From Escherichia phage Ge15: DNA of 64,000 nucleotides. The notes below the pieces were generated by a model, which saw only the letters and a program-made list of their open reading frames with translations, ran no database searches and was not told where the DNA came from. The position numbers and the translations under genes are program-made. Shown here one piece after another: positions 11,739-52,103 of the stretch. How positions within the stretch are numbered: the first letter of the stretch is position 1; the number at the start of each line of letters is the position of its first letter. The stretch is taken from the sequence record PP359696.1, one strand, 5' to 3'.

Positions 11739-14700
11739 TTATGCTAAACGAACGATATAGTTAAAAGCAATGTTTTTAACCGTGTTTTCTGTATTACCTG
11801 TACTATTTACAGTGATAGTATGTCCGTGCGAACCAATCGCTACTGAATGCGAGTGGGCACCGATACCTACAGTGTGAGTGTGAGCACCGATACCTACAGT
11901 ATGAGCATGGTTACCCGTAGCGCTAGTAGTACCTGACCAAGTATGAGTATGGTTACCTTCTGTTGATGTTTTGGCCATATTCGACGATGCAGTAGCACCG
12001 CTCACGGTTGCAGTGAATTTAGCGTTGCCGTTTGGACCTACAGTATTGTATCCGTCATAGAATACGCTAGTGGTTATGCCGCCTTGTACCTGAGGACCTG
12101 AACGCGCGTGTTGGTGGTTACCTGCTGCGGCAGTAGTTCCACTCACCGTATGGTTATGGTTACCTGTGGTATTACTGGTTTTAGTACCATAATCAAAGCT
12201 TGAAGATGTTTTAGTACCATAATCAAAGCTTGATGTGGTTTTAGTACCCAAATCAGTATTAGATGCAGAAGCACTATGATTATGAGACTTAATACCATCA
12301 GCTTCTGCACTCAACACTGCACGACCACTCGGTTTACCCTTGATAGTTTGACCACGCATATCAGGCAGAGTGCCGGAAGGATACACAGCAGCTAACTTAG
12401 GATACAAGTCAGCATCAAATGTTTGACCTTCCATTATGGCATAACCTTCAGGAGGTGTATCAGTAGGCCAAGGAATCGGAGCACCAATTGGATAACTTGA
12501 GACAATATCTGTCTTAAGGTTATTTATTGTGGTATTCAAGTTAGCAAAATTACCAGAACCACCAGTAATATTACCATCAGTACCGAATTGAGCATTACCA
12601 ACTTTTAATGGTTTAGTAATATCGACAGAATCAGAGTTTAATGCAATACCATGTGAATATGTGTAGCTGTGCATACGAACGACGTTGCCGCCATCTCCAA
12701 TACCTAAATACCATTTCGGAACATCTGCTTTACGTCCTTGAATGAAGTTAGAAGACTCTTGTGTTGGAGCATTTATTCTAATAGCATCTGATGCCATATT
12801 TACTGTTATGCGTTGACCAGCCGTAGTTCCAGCCGCTTCTACTTTAAATCTACCGCCGCCGATATCTACATCATGATCCATGGAAACTTTACCAGTACTT
12901 AATGTAATATAGAACGGACGTAAATTAGAAATACCACCTGATTCACCAACATTCTGTGGAGTTGGAATAATATAAAGCTTATCTTCAGAACGACGGAAAA
13001 TAGCCCCGTATTCAGCATCGTAAATACGGAAAGCATCAGCAGTCCCGCCAATTTTAACCTGTCCGGTAATTGAGGCACCACCTTGAACAAACAATCCATT
13101 ATTCATTGTAACGTTGCCAACTAGAGTGCTTAATCCGTTAACTCTAAGACTTCCGTCGGTTATTAAGCTTCCTCTAGCATTAACCTGTCCATTGAACTGA
13201 GTTACAACAGGGCCTGTAGTTTCAGAACCGGTCGGAGCTACGCGTTGAGAATAGAAATAATAACCTTGGCCATCAGAAACCTCAAATACGGTTTCTCGAG
13301 CTTTATCACCAGTAGCATTAAATGAGTTACCCCATGCTTTCACGGTCACATAACTTTTGTTCTGGCCTGCACGAGTACCGCCTTCCCAAAGGATTTGTTT
13401 GGTGCCATCAATACCTGAAGCCGCTTTAAAAACTAGAGAAGCATTAGTTCCATCACCATTAAAATATAATCCATTATTAAGTTTTAATGTTTGAACAGAA
13501 GCGATGGTACCATCAGCACGCAAATTTAACGAATTTGAACCAGTTTTAATATCTAAAATGCCAGGCTCAACAAGAAGCCCATCACCCATACTAATGGACA
13601 TACGACCCGTGCCACGGAAATAGTGATACATTTTAGAATTACTGCTATACCCGATATGAGTTTGACCATCACCATTATTATTACCATCAACATCGGTACG
13701 CGCAGTAAACATTGCTTGGTTGTTATTTGGGTAATCCCATGTAGTTCCGGAATCACGGCTATAACCAACCATCAATTTTTTAGTACTGTTAATACCATTG
13801 TTCAAAATGGTAGCCGAAGAAATACCGTTGGCCATTAAATCGATAACGCCGTCGCGAACCCATTTAATACCTGTATCGTTATCACCAATGGCAATACCAA
13901 TAGAAATAGCTGAATCTAATGGATAACGTCCATTCGCACCACTATCCGGAAGACCTACGGAAATAGATTTACCTGCAGTAATACGCCCGGAGGTATCAAA
14001 CGCCCACTGGAAAGATGATGGTCCAATACCAGTCCACCAAGAAATTTCTTGTGGCTTACCTTTTCGGCAATCGGCAATTTCATGGAAAATACTTGATGCA
14101 CTTGATGCACGCAATTTACGCAAATAGTTTAAACCATTAGTAGTATTATCAGAACCATCAGCCGGTGGGTTATAAACCCAAGTAGGTAAAGAAACCCAAT
14201 CATACCCGATGTTGGCGTTAGAGACAAATGTTTTTGTACTGAAATTAATATTTTTAGTAACAATTTCAGGACCGGTGATAATACCATTAGCAGAGTTAAT
14301 ATTGCCTGACGCAGAAATATTACCACTGCGAACTTCAAGACTGCCAGAATCTACAATAAAATTACCATTACGGTTAAAGACCCAGTGTTTAGAATTGTCT
14401 GGAGCTGTAGAATCAATATAATGAACTCTAAATGAGCCTTCGCTTACTAATGTACCTACTGAAAAAGTACCGTCTTTATAACGTTGCTTAATCAGAGGAT
14501 GGTATTCAGACCCTGAGGTAGTTGAACTCAAATCGGTGAAAATTGGAGCTTTATTTGTGTGCTGATTTGCCCAAGCACCATTTCCAGCAGTTTTTGGCAA
14601 GAATTCAATATACTTTCCTGCATAAACAAACTGATTTCCATTAAGATTATACGTGCCGTTTTGTAAATAATCACCATTTTGAGTAATATTTCCACTAATG

Positions 14701-41191: not shown

Positions 41192-41557
41192 ATGAACTAC
41201 ATCAACTTTGAACGTAAATATGTTTCTAACGGTATTGCAGGTTCTATTGATACTATCTGCCTTTGGAAACATCAAAATGGATCAGTATGCGAAATTGAAC
41301 AGTATATGACTCCTAACTACGTTTATATGCGATTTGAAAATGGCATCACGGTTTCAATCACGAAAGAAGGTTCTTCTTTTAAAATCGCTTTAGATGATGA
41401 TTTTCGTCAACGCGATTTAGGGACTCATCCTTGCTGGAATGGCGTCAATCGTAAGCTTCTGGTTAAAACTTGGATTCGTCATATTTTGAGTAACAGAGCT
41501 AAACCTGAGCATCTTGAAGCAATCTTTGATGTAGTTCTTAACGAATTTGATATTTAA
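41192..41557 (+). CDS. hypothetical protein
   Basis: 121-aa ORF with RBS ggag. Confidence 0.55.
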   Translation: MNYINFERKYVSNGIAGSIDTICLWKHQNGSVCEIEQYMTPNYVYMRFENGITVSITKEGSSFKIALDDDFRQRDLGTHPCWNGVNRKLLVKTWIRHILSNRAKPEHLEAIFDVVLNEFDI

Positions 41558-41567
41558 AATAAAATGA

Positions 41568-41581
41568 GGGGCTTCGGCCCC
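41568..41581 (+). terminator. hairpin ggggcttcggcccc
   Basis: GC stem with ttcg loop. Confidence 0.5.
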
Positions 41582-41598
41582 TTACTGAGGAAAATACT

Positions 41599-41886
41599 AT
41601 GTTTATGACTACTTATTTTGATACCCGTAAAAATTTCTGTGAAGTGGTTTTCTCAAAGGCGCCTAAAGACCTTCCTGCTCATTTGCAACCTACTAGTGAA
41701 TCGATTAAAAACTATGTTAATGTAGTCTGCCCTTTAGAGTTCCGTACAGTAAATGGGCGCGATACTTTAGCTATCACTAAACTTAATCGTGAAATTGACA
41801 TTGACCCTTCAATTGCGCGTGAAATTAACATTTCTGATATTGGCGGCGGTAATGTTAAATCGCATGGTTTTCAGATGAGGTTCTAA
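41599..41886 (+). CDS. hypothetical protein
   Basis: 95-aa ORF with RBS gagg. Confidence 0.5.
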   Translation: MFMTTYFDTRKNFCEVVFSKAPKDLPAHLQPTSESIKNYVNVVCPLEFRTVNGRDTLAITKLNREIDIDPSIAREINISDIGGGNVKSHGFQMRF

Positions 41887-42083
41887 TGAAATTCTTTTTG
41901 GGTCAAACTGTTGAATTAAAGGGAGTTGGTATACCTGGATTAATTTCTAAGGTTCTACCTCCATTTAAATGGAGTGGTATTCAAATAAAAGAGGCTTATA
42001 TTGTTTCCTGGGTAGATGGAAATGAAGACCTTCGTATGGGTGATGAATTATCTCCTATCTATGGATTAAAGGAATTAATATGA
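41886..42083 (+). CDS. hypothetical protein
   Basis: 65-aa ORF. Confidence 0.45.
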   Translation: MKFFLGQTVELKGVGIPGLISKVLPPFKWSGIQIKEAYIVSWVDGNEDLRMGDELSPIYGLKELI

Positions 42084-42286
42084 ATATAATTAATAAGATT
42101 TTTGGAATTCAGTACATTAAGGTTACATATAAAGTAACGTATAAAGGTCCGTATACCGATGAACATGAAGAGCCACAAGTTCAGTCTATTATATTAGAAA
42201 AGGACCCTAACTGGCCAGTTGAATTTCGTCTTCCTTGCTATGGTCATTGGGCTGATGTTGAAATTATAAGTATTGAAAATGTCTGA
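42080..42286 (+). CDS. hypothetical protein
   Basis: 68-aa ORF. Confidence 0.45.
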   Translation: MNIINKIFGIQYIKVTYKVTYKGPYTDEHEEPQVQSIILEKDPNWPVEFRLPCYGHWADVEIISIENV

Positions 42287-42737
42287 GTTAGAGATAAGAA
42301 GCAATTTTAGATGGCCATCATGTGCATTAAGTAATTTCGCCCAATGGCCTTTTGTTATGGATGGTATCCAATTTGGAGGTCTCGAAGGATTCCTCCAAGG
42401 ATGCAAGGTGAAAAATGTTGAACAACAGCGTCGTATATTTGGGTTATCCGGGCTTGCCGCCCAACAAGCTGGAAGGTCTTATGCTAGAGCTCAGGACCGT
42501 GGGACCCTCTTCTGGCTTGGAGTTCCGTTTTCAAGATACTCCCCAGCGTGGAAAGAATTATACACAAATGCATATTTTGAAGCAGCGTTCCAAAACAAGG
42601 GCTTTCGCGATGCATTACAAGCCTCGAAAGGAAAAGTTTTGAAGCACAGCATGGCTAGTGGTCTAACAAAAGATGATACAATACTAACCGAAGCTGAATT
42701 TATTGATGTGTTAAACCTATTAAGAGACTCTCTATGA
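42273..42737 (+). CDS. YbiA/NADAR (DUF1768)-like protein, 30.3-like
   Basis: motif SNFAQWPFVMDGIQFGGLEGFLQGCKV parallels YbiA FSNFAAWP..DG...SEHYFQAQK; locally higher GC. Confidence 0.6.
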   Translation: MKMSELEIRSNFRWPSCALSNFAQWPFVMDGIQFGGLEGFLQGCKVKNVEQQRRIFGLSGLAAQQAGRSYARAQDRGTLFWLGVPFSRYSPAWKELYTNAYFEAAFQNKGFRDALQASKGKVLKHSMASGLTKDDTILTEAEFIDVLNLLRDSL

Positions 42738-43597
42738 AGCCTACTATTTTGACTGATATTGATGGAGTATGTTTAAGCTGGCAATCAGGCCTTCCTTATT
42801 TTGCTCAGAAATATAATCTTCCGTTAGAACATATTTTAAAAATGATCCAAGATGAGAAATTTATTTCTCCGGGTAAACTCTTTAATTGTGATGAAGAACT
42901 TGGTGTCAAGTTAATTGAAAAATATAATCGATCAGATTTTATTCGTTATTTGTCTCCATATAAAGATGCACTGTGTGTAATTAACAAATTAAAAGAAGAT
43001 TATAATTTTGTAGCTGTTACAGCATTGGGTGATTCTATTGACGCTCTGTTGAATCGTCAATTTAATTTGAATGCTCTTTTTCCTGGTGCCTTCTCAGAAG
43101 TAATGATGTGTGGTCATGATTCTTCAAAAGAAGAGTTATTCAAAAAGGCAAAAGAGAAATATAACGTAATTTGTTATATTGACGATCTCGCTCACCATTG
43201 CGATCATGCGAGTGAAATATTAAATGTTCCTGTTTATTGGATGGCGCGAGGAGAGCGTGACAATATTCCAAAAACCGCTCAGCGAGTTTATACATGGAAT
43301 GATGTAGAAAATAAGCTTTTTTCGCCGAAGGAAAATAAAGAAAGTTTTGATAATGAAAAAGCTATAAAAGATGTAATTGAGAAGATGGTTAAAAACGATT
43401 CTTTTCGTTGGAACACTACCTGGAGAACTCCTGGATTTAATCCGTATAATCCATATTATACACATCCATATAATCCATATTATACACACCCGTATCATAT
43501 GAATCCATTCCATACGTGGAGTTATACTAAGCCTGGTGATGCAGGGTATTTTAATAGATTTACTAGTGGTGATAATATTTTCCAAGGAGCATTCTAA
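42734..43597 (+). CDS. HAD-like hydrolase with C-terminal Tyr/Pro/His-rich repeats, 30.2-like
   Basis: N-terminal ILTDIDGV (DxDG HAD motif I); C-terminal NPYNPYYTHPYNPYYTHPYHMNPFH repeats. Confidence 0.6.
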   Translation: MKPTILTDIDGVCLSWQSGLPYFAQKYNLPLEHILKMIQDEKFISPGKLFNCDEELGVKLIEKYNRSDFIRYLSPYKDALCVINKLKEDYNFVAVTALGDSIDALLNRQFNLNALFPGAFSEVMMCGHDSSKEELFKKAKEKYNVICYIDDLAHHCDHASEILNVPVYWMARGERDNIPKTAQRVYTWNDVENKLFSPKENKESFDNEKAIKDVIEKMVKNDSFRWNTTWRTPGFNPYNPYYTHPYNPYYTHPYHMNPFHTWSYTKPGDAGYFNRFTSGDNIFQGAF

Positions 43598-43644
43598 TGT
43601 TTGTCGTTCACACTATTTATGAAAATGAAGGTAATACTACACGT
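43232..43644 (+). repeat. 413-bp direct repeat, copy 1 (3' end of 30.2-like gene plus first 48 bp of 30.1-like gene)
   Basis: identical to 45617-46029 by direct comparison. Confidence 0.9.
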
Positions 43645-44017
43645 CCGTATAATCCATATTATACACATCCATATAATCCATAATTTAATCCGTATAATCC
43701 ATATTATACACATCCTATAAAAAATTAAAATTAACCACAATAAGCGAATTGATTAAAAATATTTATTGTTCATTATCCGTCAGTAATCATCCCGGGCAAA
43801 TGCCCGGGAATTATTCTAGGATTATTTTCTTTGTTAAAAAAGACAAACGGTATTAACTGATGTATTTACTATTTACCGCTCCCTGCAGGGGGGATTATCA
43901 GAATCCGCGGTTATTCATTATTTATATACATTCAATAAAAAAGTAACCTCATAAAAAATCCTGTACTCACAGGGTGATGCGGGATAACTGACGTAAGGAG
44001 TGCTGCAGGGATTTGAT
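43645..44017. other. left arm of inserted block: scrambled phage micro-repeats then unique AT-rich DNA with GC palindromes
   Basis: 43645-43680 repeats 43442-43477, 43684-43715 repeats 43436-43467; then cccgggcaaatgcccggg, ctgcagggggg, ccgcgg. Confidence 0.6.
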
Positions 44018-44108
44018 TAGACTGGCCCCCTGAATCTCCAGACAACCAATATCACTTAAATAAGTGATAGTCTTAATACTAGTTTTTAGACTAGTCATTG
44101 GAGAACAG

Positions 44109-44474
44109 ATGATTGATGTCTTAGGGCCGGAGAAACGCAGACGGCGTACCACACAGGAAAAGATCGCAATTGTTCAGCAGAGCTTTGAACCGGGGATGAC
44201 GGTCTCCCTCGTTGCCCGGCAACATGGTGTAGCAGCCAGCCAGTTATTTCTCTGGCGTAAGCAATACCAGGAAGGAAGTCTTACTGCTGTCGCCGCCGGA
44301 GAACAGGTTGTTCCTGCCTCTGAACTTGCTGCCGCCATGAAGCAGATTAAAGAACTCCAGCGCCTGCTCGGCAAGAAAACGATGGAAAATGAACTCCTCA
44401 AAGAAGCCGTTGAATATGGACGGGCAAAAAAGTGGATAGCGCACGCGCCCTTATTGCCCGGGGATGGGGAGTAA
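44109..44474 (+). CDS. insC: IS2 InsC (orfA, HTH regulator/transposase N-terminus)
   Basis: 121-aa [29 protein letters not shown]... with A6G slippery site at 44426-44432. Confidence 0.85.
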
Positions 44475-45143
44475 GCTTAGTCAGCCGTTGTCTCCGGGTG
44501 TGCCAAACGTGTTTACCGGATCATGCGCCAGAATGCGCTGTTGCTTGAGCGAAAACCTGCTGTACCGCCATCGAAACGGGCACATACAGGCAGAGTGGCC
44601 GTGAAAGAAAGCAATCAGCGATGGTGCTCTGACGGGTTCGAGTTCTGCTGTGATAACGGAGAGAGACTGCGTGTCACGTTCGCGCTGGACTGCTGTGATC
44701 GTGAGGCACTGCACTGGGCGGTCACTACCGGCGGCTTCAACAGTGAAACAGTACAGGACGTCATGCTGGGAGCGGTGGAACGCCGCTTCGGCAACGATCT
44801 TCCGTCGTCTCCAGTGGAGTGGCTGACGGATAATGGTTCATGCTACCGGGCTAATGAAACACGCCAGTTCGCCCGGATGTTGGGACTTGAACCGAAGAAC
44901 ACGGCGGTGCGGAGTCCGGAGAGTAACGGAATAGCAGAGAGCTTCGTGAAAACGATAAAGCGTGACTACATCAGTATCATGCCCAAACCAGACGGGTTAA
45001 CGGCAGCAAAGAACCTTGCAGAGGCGTTCGAGCATTATAACGAATGGCATCCGCATAGTGCGCTGGGTTATCGCTCGCCACGGGAATATCTGCGGCAGCG
45101 GGCTTGTAATGGGTTAAGTGATAACAGATGTCTGGAAATATAG
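44432..45143 (+). pseudogene. insD: IS2 insD (orfB transposase catalytic part), frame disrupted by internal deletion
   Basis: orfB reads [23 protein letters not shown] then shifts at about 44501; the downstream DDE region (44523-45143) is in another frame. Confidence 0.8.
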
Positions 45144-45367
45144 GGGCAAATCCAATAAACAATTGGAATTTACTTCCATTGATCTGTTTACTCAGTGGTT
45201 GTCACTTTTATCGAGAAAGGTTTGCAGAACGCGGGTTTTTTTATAAGGTTCCTGATGTACTGAGGGATTATTTATCAGCTATACCGCTGGAAATAAATGA
45301 AAAGGCACGATACAAACCCGGCATCGCTAACTATCACAATATCATCACATGTGGTTTTTCAACGTTG

Positions 45368-45616
45368 TTACCCTATATAAGGCACGGCACCATGACAAAT
45401 ACGGGTATTCGCGCCGATAACAACTTCACCTGCAGTTTCATCAATAATTACCTGGTCTGCAATCTGAATATTTTTCTCTTTAACATTAAGCTTCAGATAG
45501 TTTTTCAGTTCCTGTGACAGAAGGTTGGGAATAAGCGGTTGACGCTTCCACCAGTGCGGAATAGCGGGTGGGTTTGTCGCGCTGAGGTTCGCGTCCAGTA
45601 AAAAAGGCAATAAGTC
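45368..45616 (-). pseudogene. 3' fragment of a non-phage gene (C-terminal about 80 codons ending ...GANTRICHGAVPYIG)
   Basis: coding-like - strand frame ending at a stop at 45368-45370, truncated at the junction with phage repeat copy 2; higher GC than the phage. Confidence 0.5.
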
Positions 45617-46029
45617 GTTTATTGGATGGCGCGAGGAGAGCGTGACAATATTCCAAAAACCGCTCAGCGAGTTTATACATGGAATGATGTAGAAAATAAG
45701 CTTTTTTCGCCGAAGGAAAATAAAGAAAGTTTTGATAATGAAAAAGCTATAAAAGATGTAATTGAGAAGATGGTTAAAAACGATTCTTTTCGTTGGAACA
45801 CTACCTGGAGAACTCCTGGATTTAATCCGTATAATCCATATTATACACATCCATATAATCCATATTATACACACCCGTATCATATGAATCCATTCCATAC
45901 GTGGAGTTATACTAAGCCTGGTGATGCAGGGTATTTTAATAGATTTACTAGTGGTGATAATATTTTCCAAGGAGCATTCTAATGTTTGTCGTTCACACTA
46001 TTTATGAAAATGAAGGTAATACTACACGT
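45617..46029 (+). repeat. 413-bp direct repeat, copy 2
   Basis: identical to 43232-43644. Confidence 0.9.
45626..45982 (+). pseudogene. truncated duplicate of the 30.2-like gene 3' end (118 codons from internal Met)
   Basis: translation identical to the C-terminal 118 aa of the 42734-43597 product; upstream context is foreign. Confidence 0.6.
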
Positions 46030-46251
46030 GATTACGGTCACGTAAATCAATTTTTTAGATGCAATCCAGAATTCCGAGCTCAAAAAGACGAACGAATTTT
46101 TAAAAAATGTGTAGAGCAAGGTTTCATTTACGTCAAGCACTGGATGCAAGGAAATAAAGTTAGAACTACATATCATAAGTCTTTGCCTGAGCTTAATGAT
46201 GAATTGATTTATAATAGAGCTGTAAACCAAACTTTGAAGGATGAGCAATGA
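45982..46251 (+). CDS. hypothetical protein (30.1 position)
   Basis: 89-aa ORF; start overlaps the stop of the 30.2-like ORF (TAATG). Confidence 0.55.
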   Translation: MFVVHTIYENEGNTTRDYGHVNQFFRCNPEFRAQKDERIFKKCVEQGFIYVKHWMQGNKVRTTYHKSLPELNDELIYNRAVNQTLKDEQ

Positions 46252-47711
46252 TTCTTAAAATTCTGAATGAAATAGCATCTATTGGATCAACTAAACAGAA
46301 GCAAGCAATTCTTGAAAAGAATAAAGATAATGAATTGCTTAAACGGGTATATCGTCTGACTTATTCTCGTGGGTTACAGTATTATATCAAGAAATGGCCT
46401 AAACCTGGTATTGCTACCCAGAGTTTTGGAATGCTGACTATTACCGATATGCTTGACTTCATTGAATTCACGTTAGCTACTCGGAAATTGACCGGAAATG
46501 CTGCAATTGAGGAATTGACTGGATATATCACCGATGGTAAAAAGGATGATGTTGAAGTTTTGCGTCGAGTGATGATGCGAGACCTTGAATGCGGTGCTTC
46601 AGTATCTATTGCAAACAAAGTTTGGCCAGGTTTAATTCCTGAACAACCTCAAATGCTGGCAAGTTCTTATGATGAAAAGGGCATTAGTAAGAATATCAAA
46701 TTTCCAGCCTTTGCACAGTTAAAAGCAGATGGAGCCCGGTGTTTTGCTGAAGTTAGAGGCGATGAATTAGATGATGTTCGTCTTTTATCACGAGCTGGTA
46801 ATGAATATCTAGGATTAGATCTTCTTAAGGAAGAATTAATCAAAATGACTGCTGAAGCCCGCCAGATTCATCCAGAAGGTGTGTTAATTGATGGCGAATT
46901 GGTATACCATGAGCAAGTTAAAAAGGAACCAGAAGGCCTAGATTTTCTTTTTGATGCTTATCCTGAAATTAGTAAAGCTAAAGAATTCGCCGAAGTAGCG
47001 GAATCTCGTACTGCTTCTAATGGAATCGCCAATAAATCCTTAAAAGGAACCATTTCCGAAAAAGAAGCCAAATGCATGAAGTTTCAGGTCTGGGATTATG
47101 TCCCGTTGGTAGAAATATACGGTCTTCCGGCGTTTCGTTTAAAATATGATGTACGTTTTTCTAAACTAGAACAAATGACATCAGGATATGATAAAGTAAT
47201 TTTAATTGAAAACCAGGTAGTAAATAACCTAGATGAAGCTAAGGTAATTTATAAAAAATATATTGACCAAGGTCTTGAAGGTATTATTCTCAAAAATACC
47301 GATGGATTGTGGGAAAATGCTCGTTCAAAAAATCTCTATAAATTTAAAGAAGTAATTGATGTTGATTTAAAAATTGTAGGAATTTATCCTCACCGTAAAG
47401 ACCCTACTAAAGCAGGTGGATTTATTCTTGAATCAGAGTGTGGAAAAATTAAAGTAAATGCTGGTTCAGGCTTAAAAGATAAAGCCGGTGTAAAATCACA
47501 TGAACTTGACCGTACTCGCATTATGGAAAACCAAAATTATTATATTGGAAAAATTCTAGAGTGCGAATGCAACGGTTGGCTAAAATCTGATGGCCGCACT
47601 GATTACGTAAAATTATTTCTTCCAATTGCGATTCGTTTACGTGAAGATAAAACTAAAGCTAATACATTCGAGGATGTATTTGGTGATTTTCATGAGGTAA
47701 CTGGTCTATGA
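46248..47711 (+). CDS. 30: ATP-dependent DNA ligase
   Basis: 487-aa ORF near-identical to T4 DNA ligase from MILKILNEIASIGSTKQKQAIL...; adenylation lysine motif region present. Confidence 0.95.
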   Translation: MILKILNEIASIGSTKQKQAILEKNKDNELLKRVYRLTYSRGLQYYIKKWPKPGIATQSFGMLTITDMLDFIEFTLATRKLTGNAAIEELTGYITDGKKDDVEVLRRVMMRDLECGASVSIANKVWPGLIPEQPQMLASSYDEKGISKNIKFPAFAQLKADGARCFAEVRGDELDDVRLLSRAGNEYLGLDLLKEELIKMTAEARQIHPEGVLIDGELVYHEQVKKEPEGLDFLFDAYPEISKAKEFAEVAESRTASNGIANKSLKGTISEKEAKCMKFQVWDYVPLVEIYGLPAFRLKYDVRFSKLEQMTSGYDKVILIENQVVNNLDEAKVIYKKYIDQGLEGIILKNTDGLWENARSKNLYKFKEVIDVDLKIVGIYPHRKDPTKAGGFILESECGKIKVNAGSGLKDKAGVKSHELDRTRIMENQNYYIGKILECECNGWLKSDGRTDYVKLFLPIAIRLREDKTKANTFEDVFGDFHEVTGL

Positions 47712-47896
47712 AAGCTTACTTAGAAACAATTGTCGTTGCTCAAAAAGAAGGTGGAGATGTTTCTACTTCTGTATCACAAATTATGATTGAATTTATAGAT
47801 GCATATGCTTATAATAAATTCGCAGAAACATTTGATGCCTATGAAAAAGGTCCAAAGTTTGAAATATATCGTACTCTCTTACCAATAGATTATTAA
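47708..47896 (+). CDS. hypothetical protein
   Basis: 62-aa ORF coupled to ligase stop. Confidence 0.45.
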   Translation: MKAYLETIVVAQKEGGDVSTSVSQIMIEFIDAYAYNKFAETFDAYEKGPKFEIYRTLLPIDY

Positions 47897-47945: not shown

Positions 47946-50042
47946 ATGATGGAACTCATTACAGAATTATTTGACGAAGATACTACTCTTCCGATTACAA
48001 ACTTAAATCCAAAGAAGAAAATACCACAAATTTTTTCAGTTCATGTTGATGACGCAATTGAACAACCAGGCTTTCGTTTATGTACCTATACATCTGGAGG
48101 TGATACTAATCGCGATTTAAAGATGGGCGATAAAATGATGCATATTGTTCCTTTTACATTAACTGCTAAAGGTTCAATTGCTAAATTAAAAGGTCTCGGT
48201 CCAAGCCCAATTAATTACATCAATTCAGTTTTTACTGTTGCGATGCAGACGATGCGTCAGTATAAAATTGATGCCTGTATGCTTCGTATTCTTAAGTCTA
48301 AAACTGCTGGTCAAGCTCGTCAAATTCAACTTATTGCTGATAGACTTATCCGCAGTCGTTCAGGTGGCAGATACGTCCTTCTTAAGGAACTCTGGGATTA
48401 CGATAAAAAGTATGCATATATTCTTATACATCGCAAAAATGTATCACTAGAAGACATTCCAGGAGTTCCAGAAATTAGCACCGAGCTCTTTACTAAAGTT
48501 GAATCAAAGGTTGGTGATGTTTATATCAATAAAGATACTGGAGCTCAAGTAACTAAAAATGAGGCAATTGCTGCATCTATTGCGCAAGAAAACGATAAAC
48601 GTTCTGACCAAGCTGTAATCGTTAAAGTTAAAATTTCCCGTAGAGCAATTGCACAAAGTCAATCATTAGAATCTTCTAGATTTGAAAGTGAATTATTCCA
48701 AAAGTATGAATCTACCGCAGCTAATTTCAATAAACCTGCTACGGCTCCTTTAATTCCCGAAGCAGAAGAAATGAAGCTTGGAATTAATTCATTAGCTTCT
48801 AAAACTAAAGCAGCAAAAATTATTGCTGAAGGAACTGCAGATGAACTTCATTATGACTATAAATTCTTTTCAAAAAGTGAGGTTAATGAAGTTTCTGAAA
48901 AAATTAAAGATGTAATTCTTAATGCGATTAAAAATGAACCAACTACTTCAATAAAATGTTTAGAGAAATACGCAGCAGCTGTTAATCAATTATTTGAAGA
49001 ATATAAAGATAATTGGCTTGATAAACATAATAAAACCCGTAAAGGACAGCCAGATGAAGTCTGGGAAGAAATGACTAAAAATTCCTGGAACGCAGCAAAA
49101 ACTAAATTCCTCAAAAGAATGATTTACAGCTTTTCTGGAATTGGTGCAGGTCCAATGATTGATATTACTATTGCCCGTGATGGTTCTAAATATACTCCAT
49201 CACAAAAGCGTGGCATTAGAGAGTATTGCGGTTCAGGATATACTGACATCAATAATCTTCTTTTAGGACGCTACAATCCAGAACGATATGATGTAATGAG
49301 TGAAAAAGAAATTGAATCTGCTATAAATAACTTAGATTCAGCTTTTGAAAATGGTGACCGTATACCAGAAGGCATTACAGTTTATCGTGCTCAAAGCATG
49401 ACTGCTCCTATATACGAAGCACTAGTTAAAAATAAAGTGTTCTATTTCAGAAATTTTGTATCTACTTCTTTAACTCCTATCATTTTTGGACGTTTTGGAA
49501 TTACGCATACTGGTATTGGTCTTTTAGAACCAGAAGCTCGTAATGAATTGACAGTTGATAAAAATGAAGAAGGAATAACTATTAATCCAAGCGAAATAAG
49601 AGCGTATAAAGAAAATCCTGAATACGTTAAAGTTCAAATAGGATGGGCAATTGATGGAGCTCATAAAGTTAATGTTGTATATCCAGGAAGTCTCGGAATA
49701 GCAACAGAAGCTGAAGTTATTCTACCACGAGGATTGATGGTCAAAGTTAATAAAATAACTGATGCTTCTAATAATGACGGAACAACATCTAATAATACAA
49801 AACTCATTCAAGCTGAAGTTATGACTACGGAAGAACTCACCGAATCAGTCATTTATGACGGTGACCGTCTAATGGAAACTGGTGAAGTAGTTGCAATGAC
49901 AGGTGATATTGAAATAGAAGACAGAGTTGACTTTGCATCATTTGTTTCATCAAATGTTAAACAAAAAGTAGAATCATCTCTTGGAATTATTGCGTCTTGC
50001 ATAGATATTACAAACATGCCTTACAAGTTCGTTCAAGGATAA
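47946..50042 (+). CDS. alt: Alt-family ADP-ribosyltransferase (capsid-packaged, injected)
   Basis: 698-aa ORF; N-terminal MELITELFDE; position between ligase and baseplate genes as T4 alt. Confidence 0.75.
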   Translation: MMELITELFDEDTTLPITNLNPKKKIPQIFSVHVDDAIEQPGFRLCTYTSGGDTNRDLKMGDKMMHIVPFTLTAKGSIAKLKGLGPSPINYINSVFTVAMQTMRQYKIDACMLRILKSKTAGQARQIQLIADRLIRSRSGGRYVLLKELWDYDKKYAYILIHRKNVSLEDIPGVPEISTELFTKVESKVGDVYINKDTGAQVTKNEAIAASIAQENDKRSDQAVIVKVKISRRAIAQSQSLESSRFESELFQKYESTAANFNKPATAPLIPEAEEMKLGINSLASKTKAAKIIAEGTADELHYDYKFFSKSEVNEVSEKIKDVILNAIKNEPTTSIKCLEKYAAAVNQLFEEYKDNWLDKHNKTRKGQPDEVWEEMTKNSWNAAKTKFLKRMIYSFSGIGAGPMIDITIARDGSKYTPSQKRGIREYCGSGYTDINNLLLGRYNPERYDVMSEKEIESAINNLDSAFENGDRIPEGITVYRAQSMTAPIYEALVKNKVFYFRNFVSTSLTPIIFGRFGITHTGIGLLEPEARNELTVDKNEEGITINPSEIRAYKENPEYVKVQIGWAIDGAHKVNVVYPGSLGIATEAEVILPRGLMVKVNKITDASNNDGTTSNNTKLIQAEVMTTEELTESVIYDGDRLMETGEVVAMTGDIEIEDRVDFASFVSSNVKQKVESSLGIIASCIDITNMPYKFVQG

Positions 50043-50045
50043 ATC

Positions 50046-52103
50046 ATGGAACTTATTACAGAATTATTTGACGGCGCTTCGGCGCCGGTTGTTAACTTAA
50101 ATCCTAAGCATAAAATACCTCAAATTTTTGCTATTCAAACCGGTGAAGAAAGCGTGCTTCCTGGATTTAGATTTTGTACATACACCTCTGGCGGTGATAC
50201 AAATAAAAACGTTAAGCCAGGCGATAAAATGATGCATATCGTAATGATAGGTGTTAATGAGAAACTATCATTAGTTAAACTTAAAAACTTGGGTGGAAAT
50301 CCAATTGGTGTCATTAATGCGGTTTTTGATACTGCTCTTCAAACAATGAAACAGTATAAAATTGACGCATGCCTATTCCGCGTACTAAAAAGTAAAACAA
50401 ATGGTGCAGCTCGTCAAATGCAAGTTATTGCTGACCGTTTAGTACGTACTAAAGGAGCAGGTCGATATGTTCTTTTAAAGGAAATCTGGGATTACGATAA
50501 AAAGTATGCATATATTATGGTTTACCGTAAAAATGCCAATTTAGAAGACATTCCAGGTGTACCTCCTATTTCAACTGAGTTATTCACAAAAGTTGAATCA
50601 AAGGTTGGTGATGTTTATGTAGATGTTAAAACAGGTAATGCTGTTCCTAAAGCTGTTGCTGTTGCTGCTTCTATTGCTTTAGAAAATGATAAGCGCACGG
50701 ATCAAGCTGTTATTCAGAAAACTAAAATTAGTCGTCGATTGGCAGCACAAGCTCAATATTCTACTGTCGATGCTTCGCTTCAGGGTGATAGCTTCGCTGC
50801 CAAGAAATATCAAGAGTTTGAATCTAAAGTTCCGGTATATAAAGCAGAAGGACCAATGAACTCTGGTGTTATTCAGATTGGTTCAAACTTCAGCAAAGGA
50901 GCTATCGGTGGTATGAGAAGTGCTTCTCGTTTTAAATCTAACGATTATGAACTAGAAAGCTTCCGAAATCATATTGCATTGGCTCATGCACGTTTACGTG
51001 ATCCGTCTATCAGACTGCAGAGCGATATAACACATCAAGGTTCTCAAGAATATTTAAAGAATAAAGAATTTTTTGATTATAAAACCGATAAAATTTTGAG
51101 CGATCTCGCTGACATTAATATTTCTAATAGCTTTGATGTTATTAAGAAAATTATCAATGATTTAGTTAAAGGTTCTAAAGCCACGCCAGACGAAAAGGTA
51201 GCTATTATTCAATTTGTTATGAATGGCATTTATAAATTGATTAATGAATCTGCTGCTCAGGCATATGAATACGCAAGCACCGAAGTAACTCCAAAAGGAT
51301 TAACTCAGGCTGAGTCTGATGTAATAGAAGATTATTGTGCAGATTCATATGTTGAAATGAACTCGTTCCTCTTGGGTAAACCAGATTCTACCCGTGAAGA
51401 ATACATGGAACGAGCTATTAAACACATCGAGACAATGGATTCTGCATTCGCTAAAGGTTCAGTTCTTCCTCCAGGAACTACGCTTTATCGTGGACAAGAA
51501 GTTACTTTTAAAACTTTACGTCATAATATTGAAAATAAAATGTTCTATTTCAAGAACTTCGTATCCACATCGCTTAAACCAAATATCTTCGGTGAGCATG
51601 GTAAAAACTATATGGCTCTAGATGATTCCGGCGCAGTATTTTCTGGCGAAGGAGAAGGTTCAGTTGATGCTGAAGATTTAATGCATATGGGTAGTCACTC
51701 TGCTTATGCGAATGAAGACGCTGAAACTAGCGTAGGTATGGTAATTAAAGGGGCTGAGCGAATCAAAGTTATCGTTCCAGGTCATTTATCAGGATTTCCA
51801 TCAGAAGCTGAAGTTATTTTACCGCGTGGAATTTTGCTGAAGATTAATAAAGTGAGCACGTACATGATGAAAGAAACTGCTTATAATAAGTATCTAATCG
51901 AAGGCACAATCGTTCCTCCTTCTGAACAATTAGAAGAATCGGTATATGATGGCGATCATCTAATGGAAACTGGTGAAGTTCGTCCAATGGCTGGGTTTAA
52001 TCAATTCCTTGTAGAAGAATCAAAAGAAGAGGAAAACGAAGTTTCTCAAATCTTGGCTTCTTTGGTTAACATCAACGGAATGTCTAAAAAGTTCAAGATG
52101 TAG
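50046..52103 (+). CDS. Alt-like paralogue
   Basis: 685-aa ORF; same N-terminus MELITELFD and collinear similarity to the upstream alt product. Confidence 0.7.
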   Translation: MELITELFDGASAPVVNLNPKHKIPQIFAIQTGEESVLPGFRFCTYTSGGDTNKNVKPGDKMMHIVMIGVNEKLSLVKLKNLGGNPIGVINAVFDTALQTMKQYKIDACLFRVLKSKTNGAARQMQVIADRLVRTKGAGRYVLLKEIWDYDKKYAYIMVYRKNANLEDIPGVPPISTELFTKVESKVGDVYVDVKTGNAVPKAVAVAASIALENDKRTDQAVIQKTKISRRLAAQAQYSTVDASLQGDSFAAKKYQEFESKVPVYKAEGPMNSGVIQIGSNFSKGAIGGMRSASRFKSNDYELESFRNHIALAHARLRDPSIRLQSDITHQGSQEYLKNKEFFDYKTDKILSDLADINISNSFDVIKKIINDLVKGSKATPDEKVAIIQFVMNGIYKLINESAAQAYEYASTEVTPKGLTQAESDVIEDYCADSYVEMNSFLLGKPDSTREEYMERAIKHIETMDSAFAKGSVLPPGTTLYRGQEVTFKTLRHNIENKMFYFKNFVSTSLKPNIFGEHGKNYMALDDSGAVFSGEGEGSVDAEDLMHMGSHSAYANEDAETSVGMVIKGAERIKVIVPGHLSGFPSEAEVILPRGILLKINKVSTYMMKETAYNKYLIEGTIVPPSEQLEESVYDGDHLMETGEVRPMAGFNQFLVEESKEEENEVSQILASLVNINGMSKKFKM

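Follow-up and report, generated by a model that had tools for sequence, protein, structure and literature searches.

The closest described relatives of the protein considered here are enzymes of the haloacid dehalogenase (HAD) superfamily, in particular cdN, mdN and their bacterial relatives (NT5C, PF06941; structures 2jao, 2i7d, 1q92, and 3bwv), in which a HAD core carrying a C1 four-helix cap makes up a protein of about 190 to 200 amino acids (aa). Within the superfamily, capped members act on small molecules and capless members on macromolecules, and by the established classification the HAD domains of PNKP type are capless, admitting the ends of polymers. Also pertinent is a second described system of a quite different kind: the scars left when broken DNA is repaired, in which duplications or insertions are accompanied by templated inserts and captured fragments. 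Such scars with filler have been described both for end-joining and for replicative template switching. Both systems bear on gene 30.2 of Escherichia phage Ge15, which lies at positions 42734-43597 (on the + strand, like the other genes and segments of this locus) of the 64,000 nucleotides (nt) of sequence record PP359696.1 that were analysed, referred to here as the window. Its T4 counterpart, gp30.2, belongs to PHROGs family 420, annotated 'unknown function' (match to the Ge15 protein, E 4.5e-89), and goes in UniRef and some GenBank records by the names 'haloacid dehalogenase-like hydrolase domain-containing protein', 'HAD-superfamily hydrolase', and '5'-3' deoxyribonucleotidase'.

By its open reading frame (ORF), its PHROGs match, and its synteny, 42734-43597 is the 30.2 ortholog of a Tequatrovirus, complete at 287 aa. 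As an accessory gene of T4 it is unremarkable and has been catalogued before: NCBI contains the identical 287-aa sequence, and the same protein is found in other contigs in the canonical order 30.3-30.2-30.1-ligase. The only unusual feature of the locus is a duplication that encloses a mosaic of host DNA centred on the insertion sequence IS2. The explanation that best accounts for protein, tail, and scar together, and which may be called probable though well short of secure, is that residues 1-195 form a Mg2+-dependent HAD phosphomonoesterase with a C1 cap, that the C-terminus is a disordered appendage with a slippage-prone repeat, and that the duplication is the scar of one break repair.

A first-pass annotation of the window had assigned the N-terminus to the HAD type on the strength of its motif I pattern, and in this it was right. 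Motif I, TDIDGV, is encoded at 42752-42769 and provides D8-I-D10-G-V after a strand at residues 4-7. Searching 5.8 billion proteins turned up 100 homologs, every one of them encoded by a T4-like phage. All share the conserved first ~195 residues, but their C-termini differ in length, from none at all to ~150 aa. Alignment of 55 homologs showed no substitution at D8, D10, or K132 and conservation of at least 90% at T96, D150, and D151; in a set of 91 distant relatives, too, D8 and D10 never vary. An AlphaFold2 (AF2) model built on the homolog alignment is confident throughout the core (predicted local distance difference test, pLDDT, ~93-98 for residues 1-190) and presents a Rossmann-like alpha/beta core of the HAD kind, with a strand order that puts every HAD motif at its expected strand end. 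Motif II is T96, at the end of strand 91-96; motif III is K132, just ahead of helix 133-142; and motif IV is D150-D151, at the end of strand 145-150. Between strands 1 and 2 the model inserts a C1 cap (residues 16-86), consisting of helices 16-26, 32-40, 46-49, 54-65, and 77-86. When the model was compared by Foldseek with structures in the PDB, the best 50 matches were all HAD enzymes or designs on a HAD scaffold (E 3e-8 to 5e-6). They include cdN, mdN, and 3bwv, with a TM-score of 0.63-0.71 on the target, and the best structural matches are all C1-capped. The HAD signal is thus more than a chance motif, insofar as conserved residues and predicted fold agree. The alignment, the model, and the Foldseek matches together define the putative catalytic core with its cap as residues 1-195 (42734-43318). 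Under the standard HAD mechanism, D8 would act as nucleophile and become the aspartyl-phosphate, D10 would serve as general acid/base, the phosphate would be held by T96 and K132, and the metal by D150/D151.

Fold alone does not separate the subfamilies of HAD enzymes, but sequence does to some degree. When the family profile was run against sequences in the PDB, the first match was mouse cdN (2jao), weak at E 0.13, aligned over DGVL-x-x-(F/W)(E/Q)SGL. At that same low significance, W16-Q17-S18-G19-L20 of 30.2 is placed against F-E-S-G-L of the mouse enzyme, W16 being invariant in the 55 homologs. A DxDGV followed by an aromatic-(E/Q)-(S/G)-G-L segment may be common to NT5C enzymes and 30.2. 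Close relatives also match NT5C more often than any other Pfam family (11 of 55). When 1.84 billion representatives were searched exhaustively with the profile, 1,311 relatives emerged, mostly 190-220 aa in length and tailless. In the set of 91 distant relatives, which is homologous to 30.2 beyond doubt (hhalign E 8e-58), 43 proteins match NT5C (best E 4.2e-10), 18 match the generic Hydrolase model, and one matches HAD_PNKP. Unlike 30.2, the NT5C enzymes have no C-terminal tail, and identity to them is 13-21%. Because the protein encoded in the window does not reach the gathering score of NT5C PF06941, 30.2 is best described as a putative C1-capped HAD enzyme distantly related to the NT5C nucleotidases and not as a demonstrated member of that family. 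Alignment and model together confirm the HAD nature of 30.2, which may be refined to 'capped, NT5C-like'. Since NT5C is the nearest sequence family, the substrate would most likely be a (deoxy)nucleoside monophosphate or a similar small phospho-metabolite, and the cap likewise favours something nucleotide-like over DNA ends.

The first-pass annotation had likened the N-terminus to the phosphatase domain of PseT, a likeness that the comparison does not support. The superfamily and the chemistry of motif I are indeed shared with the phosphatase domain of T4 PseT/PNKP (HAD_PNKP). However, hhalign of 30.2 against the PseT of this same phage (35446-36354) aligned just 33 columns around motif I, at a probability of 11%. 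PseT-type domains lack a cap and work on the ends of polynucleotides, whereas 30.2 is predicted to be capped. The absence of homology past motif I and the predicted C1 cap speak against membership of 30.2 in the PNKP/PseT type.

Past the core lies a C-terminal extension (residues 196-287; 43319-43594), distinguished by pLDDT and composition, in which a helix at 202-220 is followed by a low-confidence tail rich in aromatic residues and proline. The pLDDT falls below 50 at residues 228-232, 242-247, and 250-287. The last 65 residues are 35% F/W/Y/H and 12% Pro, and across homologs F/W/Y/P make up 27% of distal tails versus 16% of cores. The model depicts residues ~223-287 as intrinsically disordered, a tail in which Tyr, Phe, Trp, Pro, and His abound. 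Such tails are the exception: there is none in 132 of 142 family representatives, and those that exist are confined to enterobacterial T-even-like lineages. Two near-terminal motifs, G-[IV]-E-Y-L-x-N-x-P-T and L-[RK]-A-[YF]-[YF], each occur in 12 of 59 long-tailed homologs, and their recurrence suggests that the tail is probably a docking linker, that is, a docking peptide at the end of a disordered tether.

Within the tail, a 24-nt tandem repeat of 2.3 copies (43440-43495; Tandem Repeats Finder, 90% matches, score 98, and DNA alignment) encodes NPYYTHPY twice, the copies lying within residues ~235-263. The earlier description of the last 50 residues as Tyr/Pro/His-rich repeats was accurate as to the repeat's nature but too generous as to its extent, which is ~30 residues, the final 24 being non-repetitive. 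The repeat was also expected to vary across isolates, and it does. Among phages at least 91% identical in 30.2, there are at least seven variants of the repeat block, giving proteins of 278, 279, 282, 284, 286, and 287 aa, which differ by in-frame insertions or deletions (indels) between allele lineages and in some cases also by a duplication of TAGTGG. By DNA alignment, every length difference of the block among close relatives maps to the repeat at 43440-43495. Within a lineage the picture is one of stability: among the matches listed, 13 phage records agree at every position with the 221 nt around the repeat, and 33 agree at 99% or more. The 287-aa allele is therefore common and stable within its lineage, and the repeat varies between lineages. 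Indels in the 24-nt and 9-nt repeats fit replication slippage, and the repeat may be regarded as a slippage-prone segment of low complexity. In comparison with the representative of the T4 gp30.2 cluster, P0001 (279 aa, 91% identity), which is presumed but not confirmed to be the T4-type allele, the allele in Ge15 has one additional 24-nt repeat unit, and its C-terminal motif is GDAGYFNRFTSG in place of GG(I/V)EYLYNRPTSG. Elsewhere in the family, the relative P0014 has a tailless 30.2 core fused in one ORF to 30.1 (DUF3045), and in others the C-terminus is extended by unrelated sequence, up to ~150 aa of it. Across the family, 30.2 has a modular junction at its 3' end.

What sets the locus of Ge15 apart from every related genome, and from that of T4 gp30.2, is 2,385 bp of extra DNA, made up of a 413-bp duplicate and 1,972 bp of filler. 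The first copy of the duplication (43232-43644) comprises the last 366 nt of 30.2 and the first 47 nt of 30.1, and it is identical at 413 of 413 positions to the second copy (45617-46029), a promoterless 3' fragment of 30.2 leading into an intact 30.1. The first-pass annotation had the 3' third of the gene duplicated; the duplication is indeed exact, but it takes in 366 of the 864 nt of 30.2 (42%) as well as the 47 nt of 30.1. A search of the duplicated segment for promoters yielded just generic sigma-70-like matches at background frequency and no MotA-type site. Genes 30.2, 30.1, and the ligase gene were left intact by the rearrangement.

The filler is fully resolved into seven pieces. First come two scraps of the 30.2 repeat, as previously reported, and both are exact: scrap 1 (43645-43682, 38 nt) copies 43442-43479, and scrap 2 (43683-43715, 33 nt) copies 43435-43467. 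The junction with the first scrap creates a truncated ORF, 30.1' (43597-43683), in which 16 codons of 30.1 are fused in frame to scrap 1 to give 28 codons, MFVVHTIYENEGNTTRPYNPYYTHPYNP, and a stop. The other five pieces come from E. coli K-12. The first is 65 nt (43716-43780) from the left flank of IS2I in the usher gene yqiG, at offsets -68 to -4 from the element, and it has no match in phage records. Next are 237 nt (43781-44017) from the left flank of IS2K, downstream of intB, at offsets -246 to -10, so that the piece ends 9 nt short of IS2K. This piece brings with it a terminator-like GC hairpin and T-rich tail (43790-43809), oriented with transcription toward 30.1 and ligase, which could be polar on the essential ligase gene. 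Then follows IS2 itself (44018-45154), nt 1-484 joined to 679-1331 with 485-678 deleted, hence 1,137 of 1,331 nt. The last two pieces are 230 nt (45155-45384) from the right flank of IS2H in the orgA/ygeO pseudogene, at offsets +1 to +230, native and contiguous with the right end of IS2, and 232 nt (45385-45616) from the right flank of IS2A (yaiX/yaiP), at offsets +48 to +279. In the 1,901 nt derived from the host, the single mismatch is at 45262 (G here, A in K-12), which falls in the IS2H flank; among the best-ranked matches to that piece, no E. coli genome exceeds 99.6% identity. Scoring covered seven of the eight joints, all but that between the IS2K flank and nt 1 of IS2, and gave 0-1 nt of microhomology at each.

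The IS2 piece is by far the strongest GC island in the window (0.57, versus a mean of 0.36; the next, at 11801-12200, reaches barely 0.477). Over its 1,137 nt it is 100% identical to the K-12 element, a member of the IS3 family, with which it shares both terminal inverted repeats and an intact insC. It differs from that element by the internal deletion, by which insD is truncated and out of frame, and hence the InsCD transposase cannot be made. A functional insertion of IS2 into the phage is ruled out: just 1,137 bp of the element are present, there is no target-site duplication, and the flanks come from different chromosomal copies of IS2, so the structure did not arise by transposition into the phage.

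The arrangement resembles known break-repair scars in having an exact direct duplication on either side of filler, short inserts templated from within ~210 nt of the break, and joints with 0-1 nt of microhomology. It differs from them in occurring in a virulent phage with hydroxymethylcytosine (hmC) DNA and in that the captured DNA is host chromosomal and comes exclusively from the neighbourhoods of IS2. The simplest mechanism is that two broken phage ends, one ending at 43644 and the other starting at 43232, presumably on different copies of the genome, were joined to one another. Ends that overlap at 43232-43644 would, when joined, give a direct duplication of the overlap. The bridge between them would have been built from two copies templated from the nearby repeat and then from the five host pieces. 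That filler came from the repeat is probably due to the ease with which a nascent end can re-prime in a 24-nt/9-nt repeat. Joints lacking homology, together with copies templated from 165-210 nt upstream of the break, point to end-joining or serial template switching. Since only genomes of the K-12 type have these flanks next to IS2, the host was almost certainly a K-12 derivative, and the event was recent, as judged from the identity of the duplicate copies and the one mismatch in the 1,901 host nt. Most likely, the rearrangement happened once, apart from the function of the gene, during growth on a K-12-derived host.

Searches of wide compass returned no second instance. Of 50,697 phage records, 703 were related phages matching the locus, and none of these has the insert or the duplication. 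The structure was not found in 5,426 complete E. coli genomes, nor in 72,556 plasmids, among which the search returned IS2 only. A 26-mer spanning the yaiP|30.2 junction was searched for exactly in IMG/VR, GTDB genomes, and JGI metagenomes and was absent from all three. No database record corresponds to the chimeric ORFs (a 118-aa fragment of 30.2 and junction ORFs of 129 aa and 200 aa), and a look-up of the truncated InsD gave only unrelated interrupted copies of IS2. A search of the literature on capture by T4 of host DNA or of IS2 found no precedent for the scar. The scar is unique to this genome and represents one private event.

Several observations detract from the combined explanation. 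Regarding the enzyme, scans of the 30.2 protein against Pfam and NCBIfam gave no match, even at E<=1; scans of nine longer family members against Pfam found no fusion domain besides HAD and no functional clue; and literature searches found no assay of 30.2 as a phosphatase of deoxynucleoside monophosphates. (Searches of 30.2 and 30.3 by phmmer against sequences in the PDB gave nothing significant.) The conserved place of the gene directly upstream of DNA ligase could point instead to the processing of DNA ends. Regarding the scar, the insert is known from an assembled sequence alone, and a chimeric or mis-assembled origin is possible. Finally, end-joining of random fragments leaves unexplained why every host piece has its origin at or within 280 nt of IS2.

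This last difficulty invites the alternative that fares best, a process linked to IS2 itself in place of random capture. All five host pieces are IS2 or lie no more than 280 nt from four K-12 copies (IS2I, IS2K, IS2H, and IS2A), left flanks standing at the left and right flanks at the right in consistent orientation. By rough arithmetic, ~0.3% of K-12 lies that near to IS2, and four random pieces would do so with p ~1e-10, an estimate that excludes chance as the source of the bias. Perhaps the pieces were intermediates of IS2 transposition, or perhaps T4 recombination-dependent replication was primed between dispersed IS2 copies, which would turn IS2-linked host DNA into nuclease-resistant hmC DNA. 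The virulent Vequintavirus BP9 (PP488543.1) carries nt 1-381 of IS2 (95.8% identity) at 2501-2881, overlapping the 3' end of rIIB, a hint that IS2 DNA does reach the genomes of lytic phages. Yet no joint has the form expected of IS2 transposition and no target is duplicated; the left flanks end 3 and 9 nt before the element begins; IS2 is internally deleted; the joints use no homology; and no published precedent was found. On balance, an IS2-linked process seems a minority prospect, to be kept in mind more than believed. A more specific proposal is a degree more doubtful still: that the filler records an undescribed route by which DNA at and around dispersed IS2 copies is preferentially captured into the genome of a virulent hmC phage and stitched without homology, with the 30.2 repeat giving filler. 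In such a route, the captured DNA could be intermediates of IS2 transposition or multi-copy IS DNA that primes T4 recombination-dependent replication and in this way escapes the degradation of host DNA.

It might be argued instead that the phage does not contain the insert, which would then be an artefact of library or assembly, formed from contaminating host reads around the multi-copy IS2. No other sequence searched has the insert, lysates are commonly contaminated with host DNA, and assemblers are confused by repeats such as IS2. Moreover, the three long flank pieces are of near-equal, read-like lengths (237, 230, and 232 nt), and the copies of the duplication are perfectly identical. Nonetheless, an artefact is unlikely, because assemblers join sequences through shared k-mers and cannot create joints such as those scored here, which share 0-1 nt. 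Also, the offsets of the flanks from IS2 are not equivalent (the IS2I piece, at -68 to -4, for example, is outside the IS2K piece, at -246 to -10), all the pieces are co-oriented, and an exact direct duplication with filler that includes scraps templated ~200 nt away is the classic signature of break repair. According to the HIDEN-SEQ supplement (bioRxiv 10.1101/2025.11.20.689424), a transposon screen of T4 on K-12 found 30.2 (72 of 72 sites with insertions) and 30.1 non-essential and gene 30 essential. Since 30.2 and 30.1 are non-essential on K-12, an insertion between them is plausibly viable, and insertions at this position are tolerated in T4.

No more probable is the proposal of the first-pass annotation that the DNA encoding the repeat is a recombination hotspot, breaking or mispairing recurrently and so driving duplications and insertions. 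Both templated scraps do derive from the repeat, it is at the repeat block that close relatives differ in length, always in frame, and the 3' end of 30.2 varies family-wide, with tails of 0-148 aa, tails that have been replaced, and the 30.2-30.1 fusion in P0014. But the breakpoints, 43232 and 43644, fall outside the repeat (43440-43495), which supplied just 71 of the 1,972 nt of filler. The insert and duplication are absent from all 703 related records, the canonical adjacency of 30.2 and 30.1 is preserved in 13 of 13 independent contigs examined, and the 287-aa allele is identical in many isolates. Small in-frame indels, for their part, are the mark of slippage and not of recombination. With a single private event and breakpoints elsewhere, the repeat has not earned the name of recombination hotspot; it acted as a slippage-prone template for filler.

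The least probable of the alternatives concerns the enzyme and supposes gp30.2 to be a PNKP/PseT-like 3'-phosphatase of DNA or RNA ends that partners the adjacent ligase: it can appeal to the position of 30.2 homologs immediately upstream of ligase in T4-like phages of Escherichia, Klebsiella, Acinetobacter, and Shewanella and to weak matches to the PHROG 'polynucleotide kinase' family (E 0.0012) and, in one relative, to HAD_PNKP, but it must contend with the full helical C1 cap that the model sets above the active site, with the meagre hhalign result against PseT, with the preponderance of NT5C over HAD_PNKP among the distant relatives (43 versus 1 of 91), and with the circumstance that adjacency to ligase is weak evidence within a long conserved block of T4 early genes.

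If 30.2 is, as the preferred explanation has it, a capped NT5C-like HAD enzyme, then a gene conserved beside ligase across T4-like phages of many hosts acquires a testable activity, the dephosphorylation of nucleotides. Its tail offers an example of a disordered appendage evolving by slippage. The scar has another kind of interest. T4-type phages are regarded as safe from host DNA and mobile elements, and here ~1.9 kb of K-12 DNA is present, including most of an IS2. This is relevant to quality control wherever therapeutic phage stocks are propagated on laboratory strains, and the IS2 bias, if real, also concerns the ways in which host sequences enter virulent phages. The scar, being a single event seen in an assembled sequence, is of modest general importance.

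The order of genes in the window is colinear with Tequatrovirus genomes, from rIIA to hoc, and identity to Escherichia phage sutha is 91-98% in most aligned blocks, lower in the variable tail-fibre region. Literature searches on gp30.2 and on phage deoxyribonucleotidases found no functional study of 30.2, and an Rfam scan of 41500-47800 gave no match. Upstream, gene 30.3 (42273-42737; PF08010, E 9e-70; UniProt name 'Anti-DarT factor NADAR') encodes AdfN, the published anti-DarT NADAR enzyme (PMC11257639), so that 30.2 adjoins a proven anti-defence gene. The stop of 30.3 and the start of 30.2 overlap (ATGA). In distant T4-like phages, 30.3 is not always beside 30.2. Downstream of the second copy of the duplication, the intact gene 30.1 (DUF3045; 45982-46251; PF11243, E 5.6e-63) is followed by gene 30, DNA ligase (46248-47711), identified from its ORF and from PF01068 in syntenic loci. 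Beyond the ligase lie two tandem paralogs of Alt-like ADP-ribosyltransferase, at 47946-50042 (698 aa) and 50046-52103 (685 aa). The pair occurs also in several relatives, and phage sutha has one full-length copy followed by a short Alt-like fragment.

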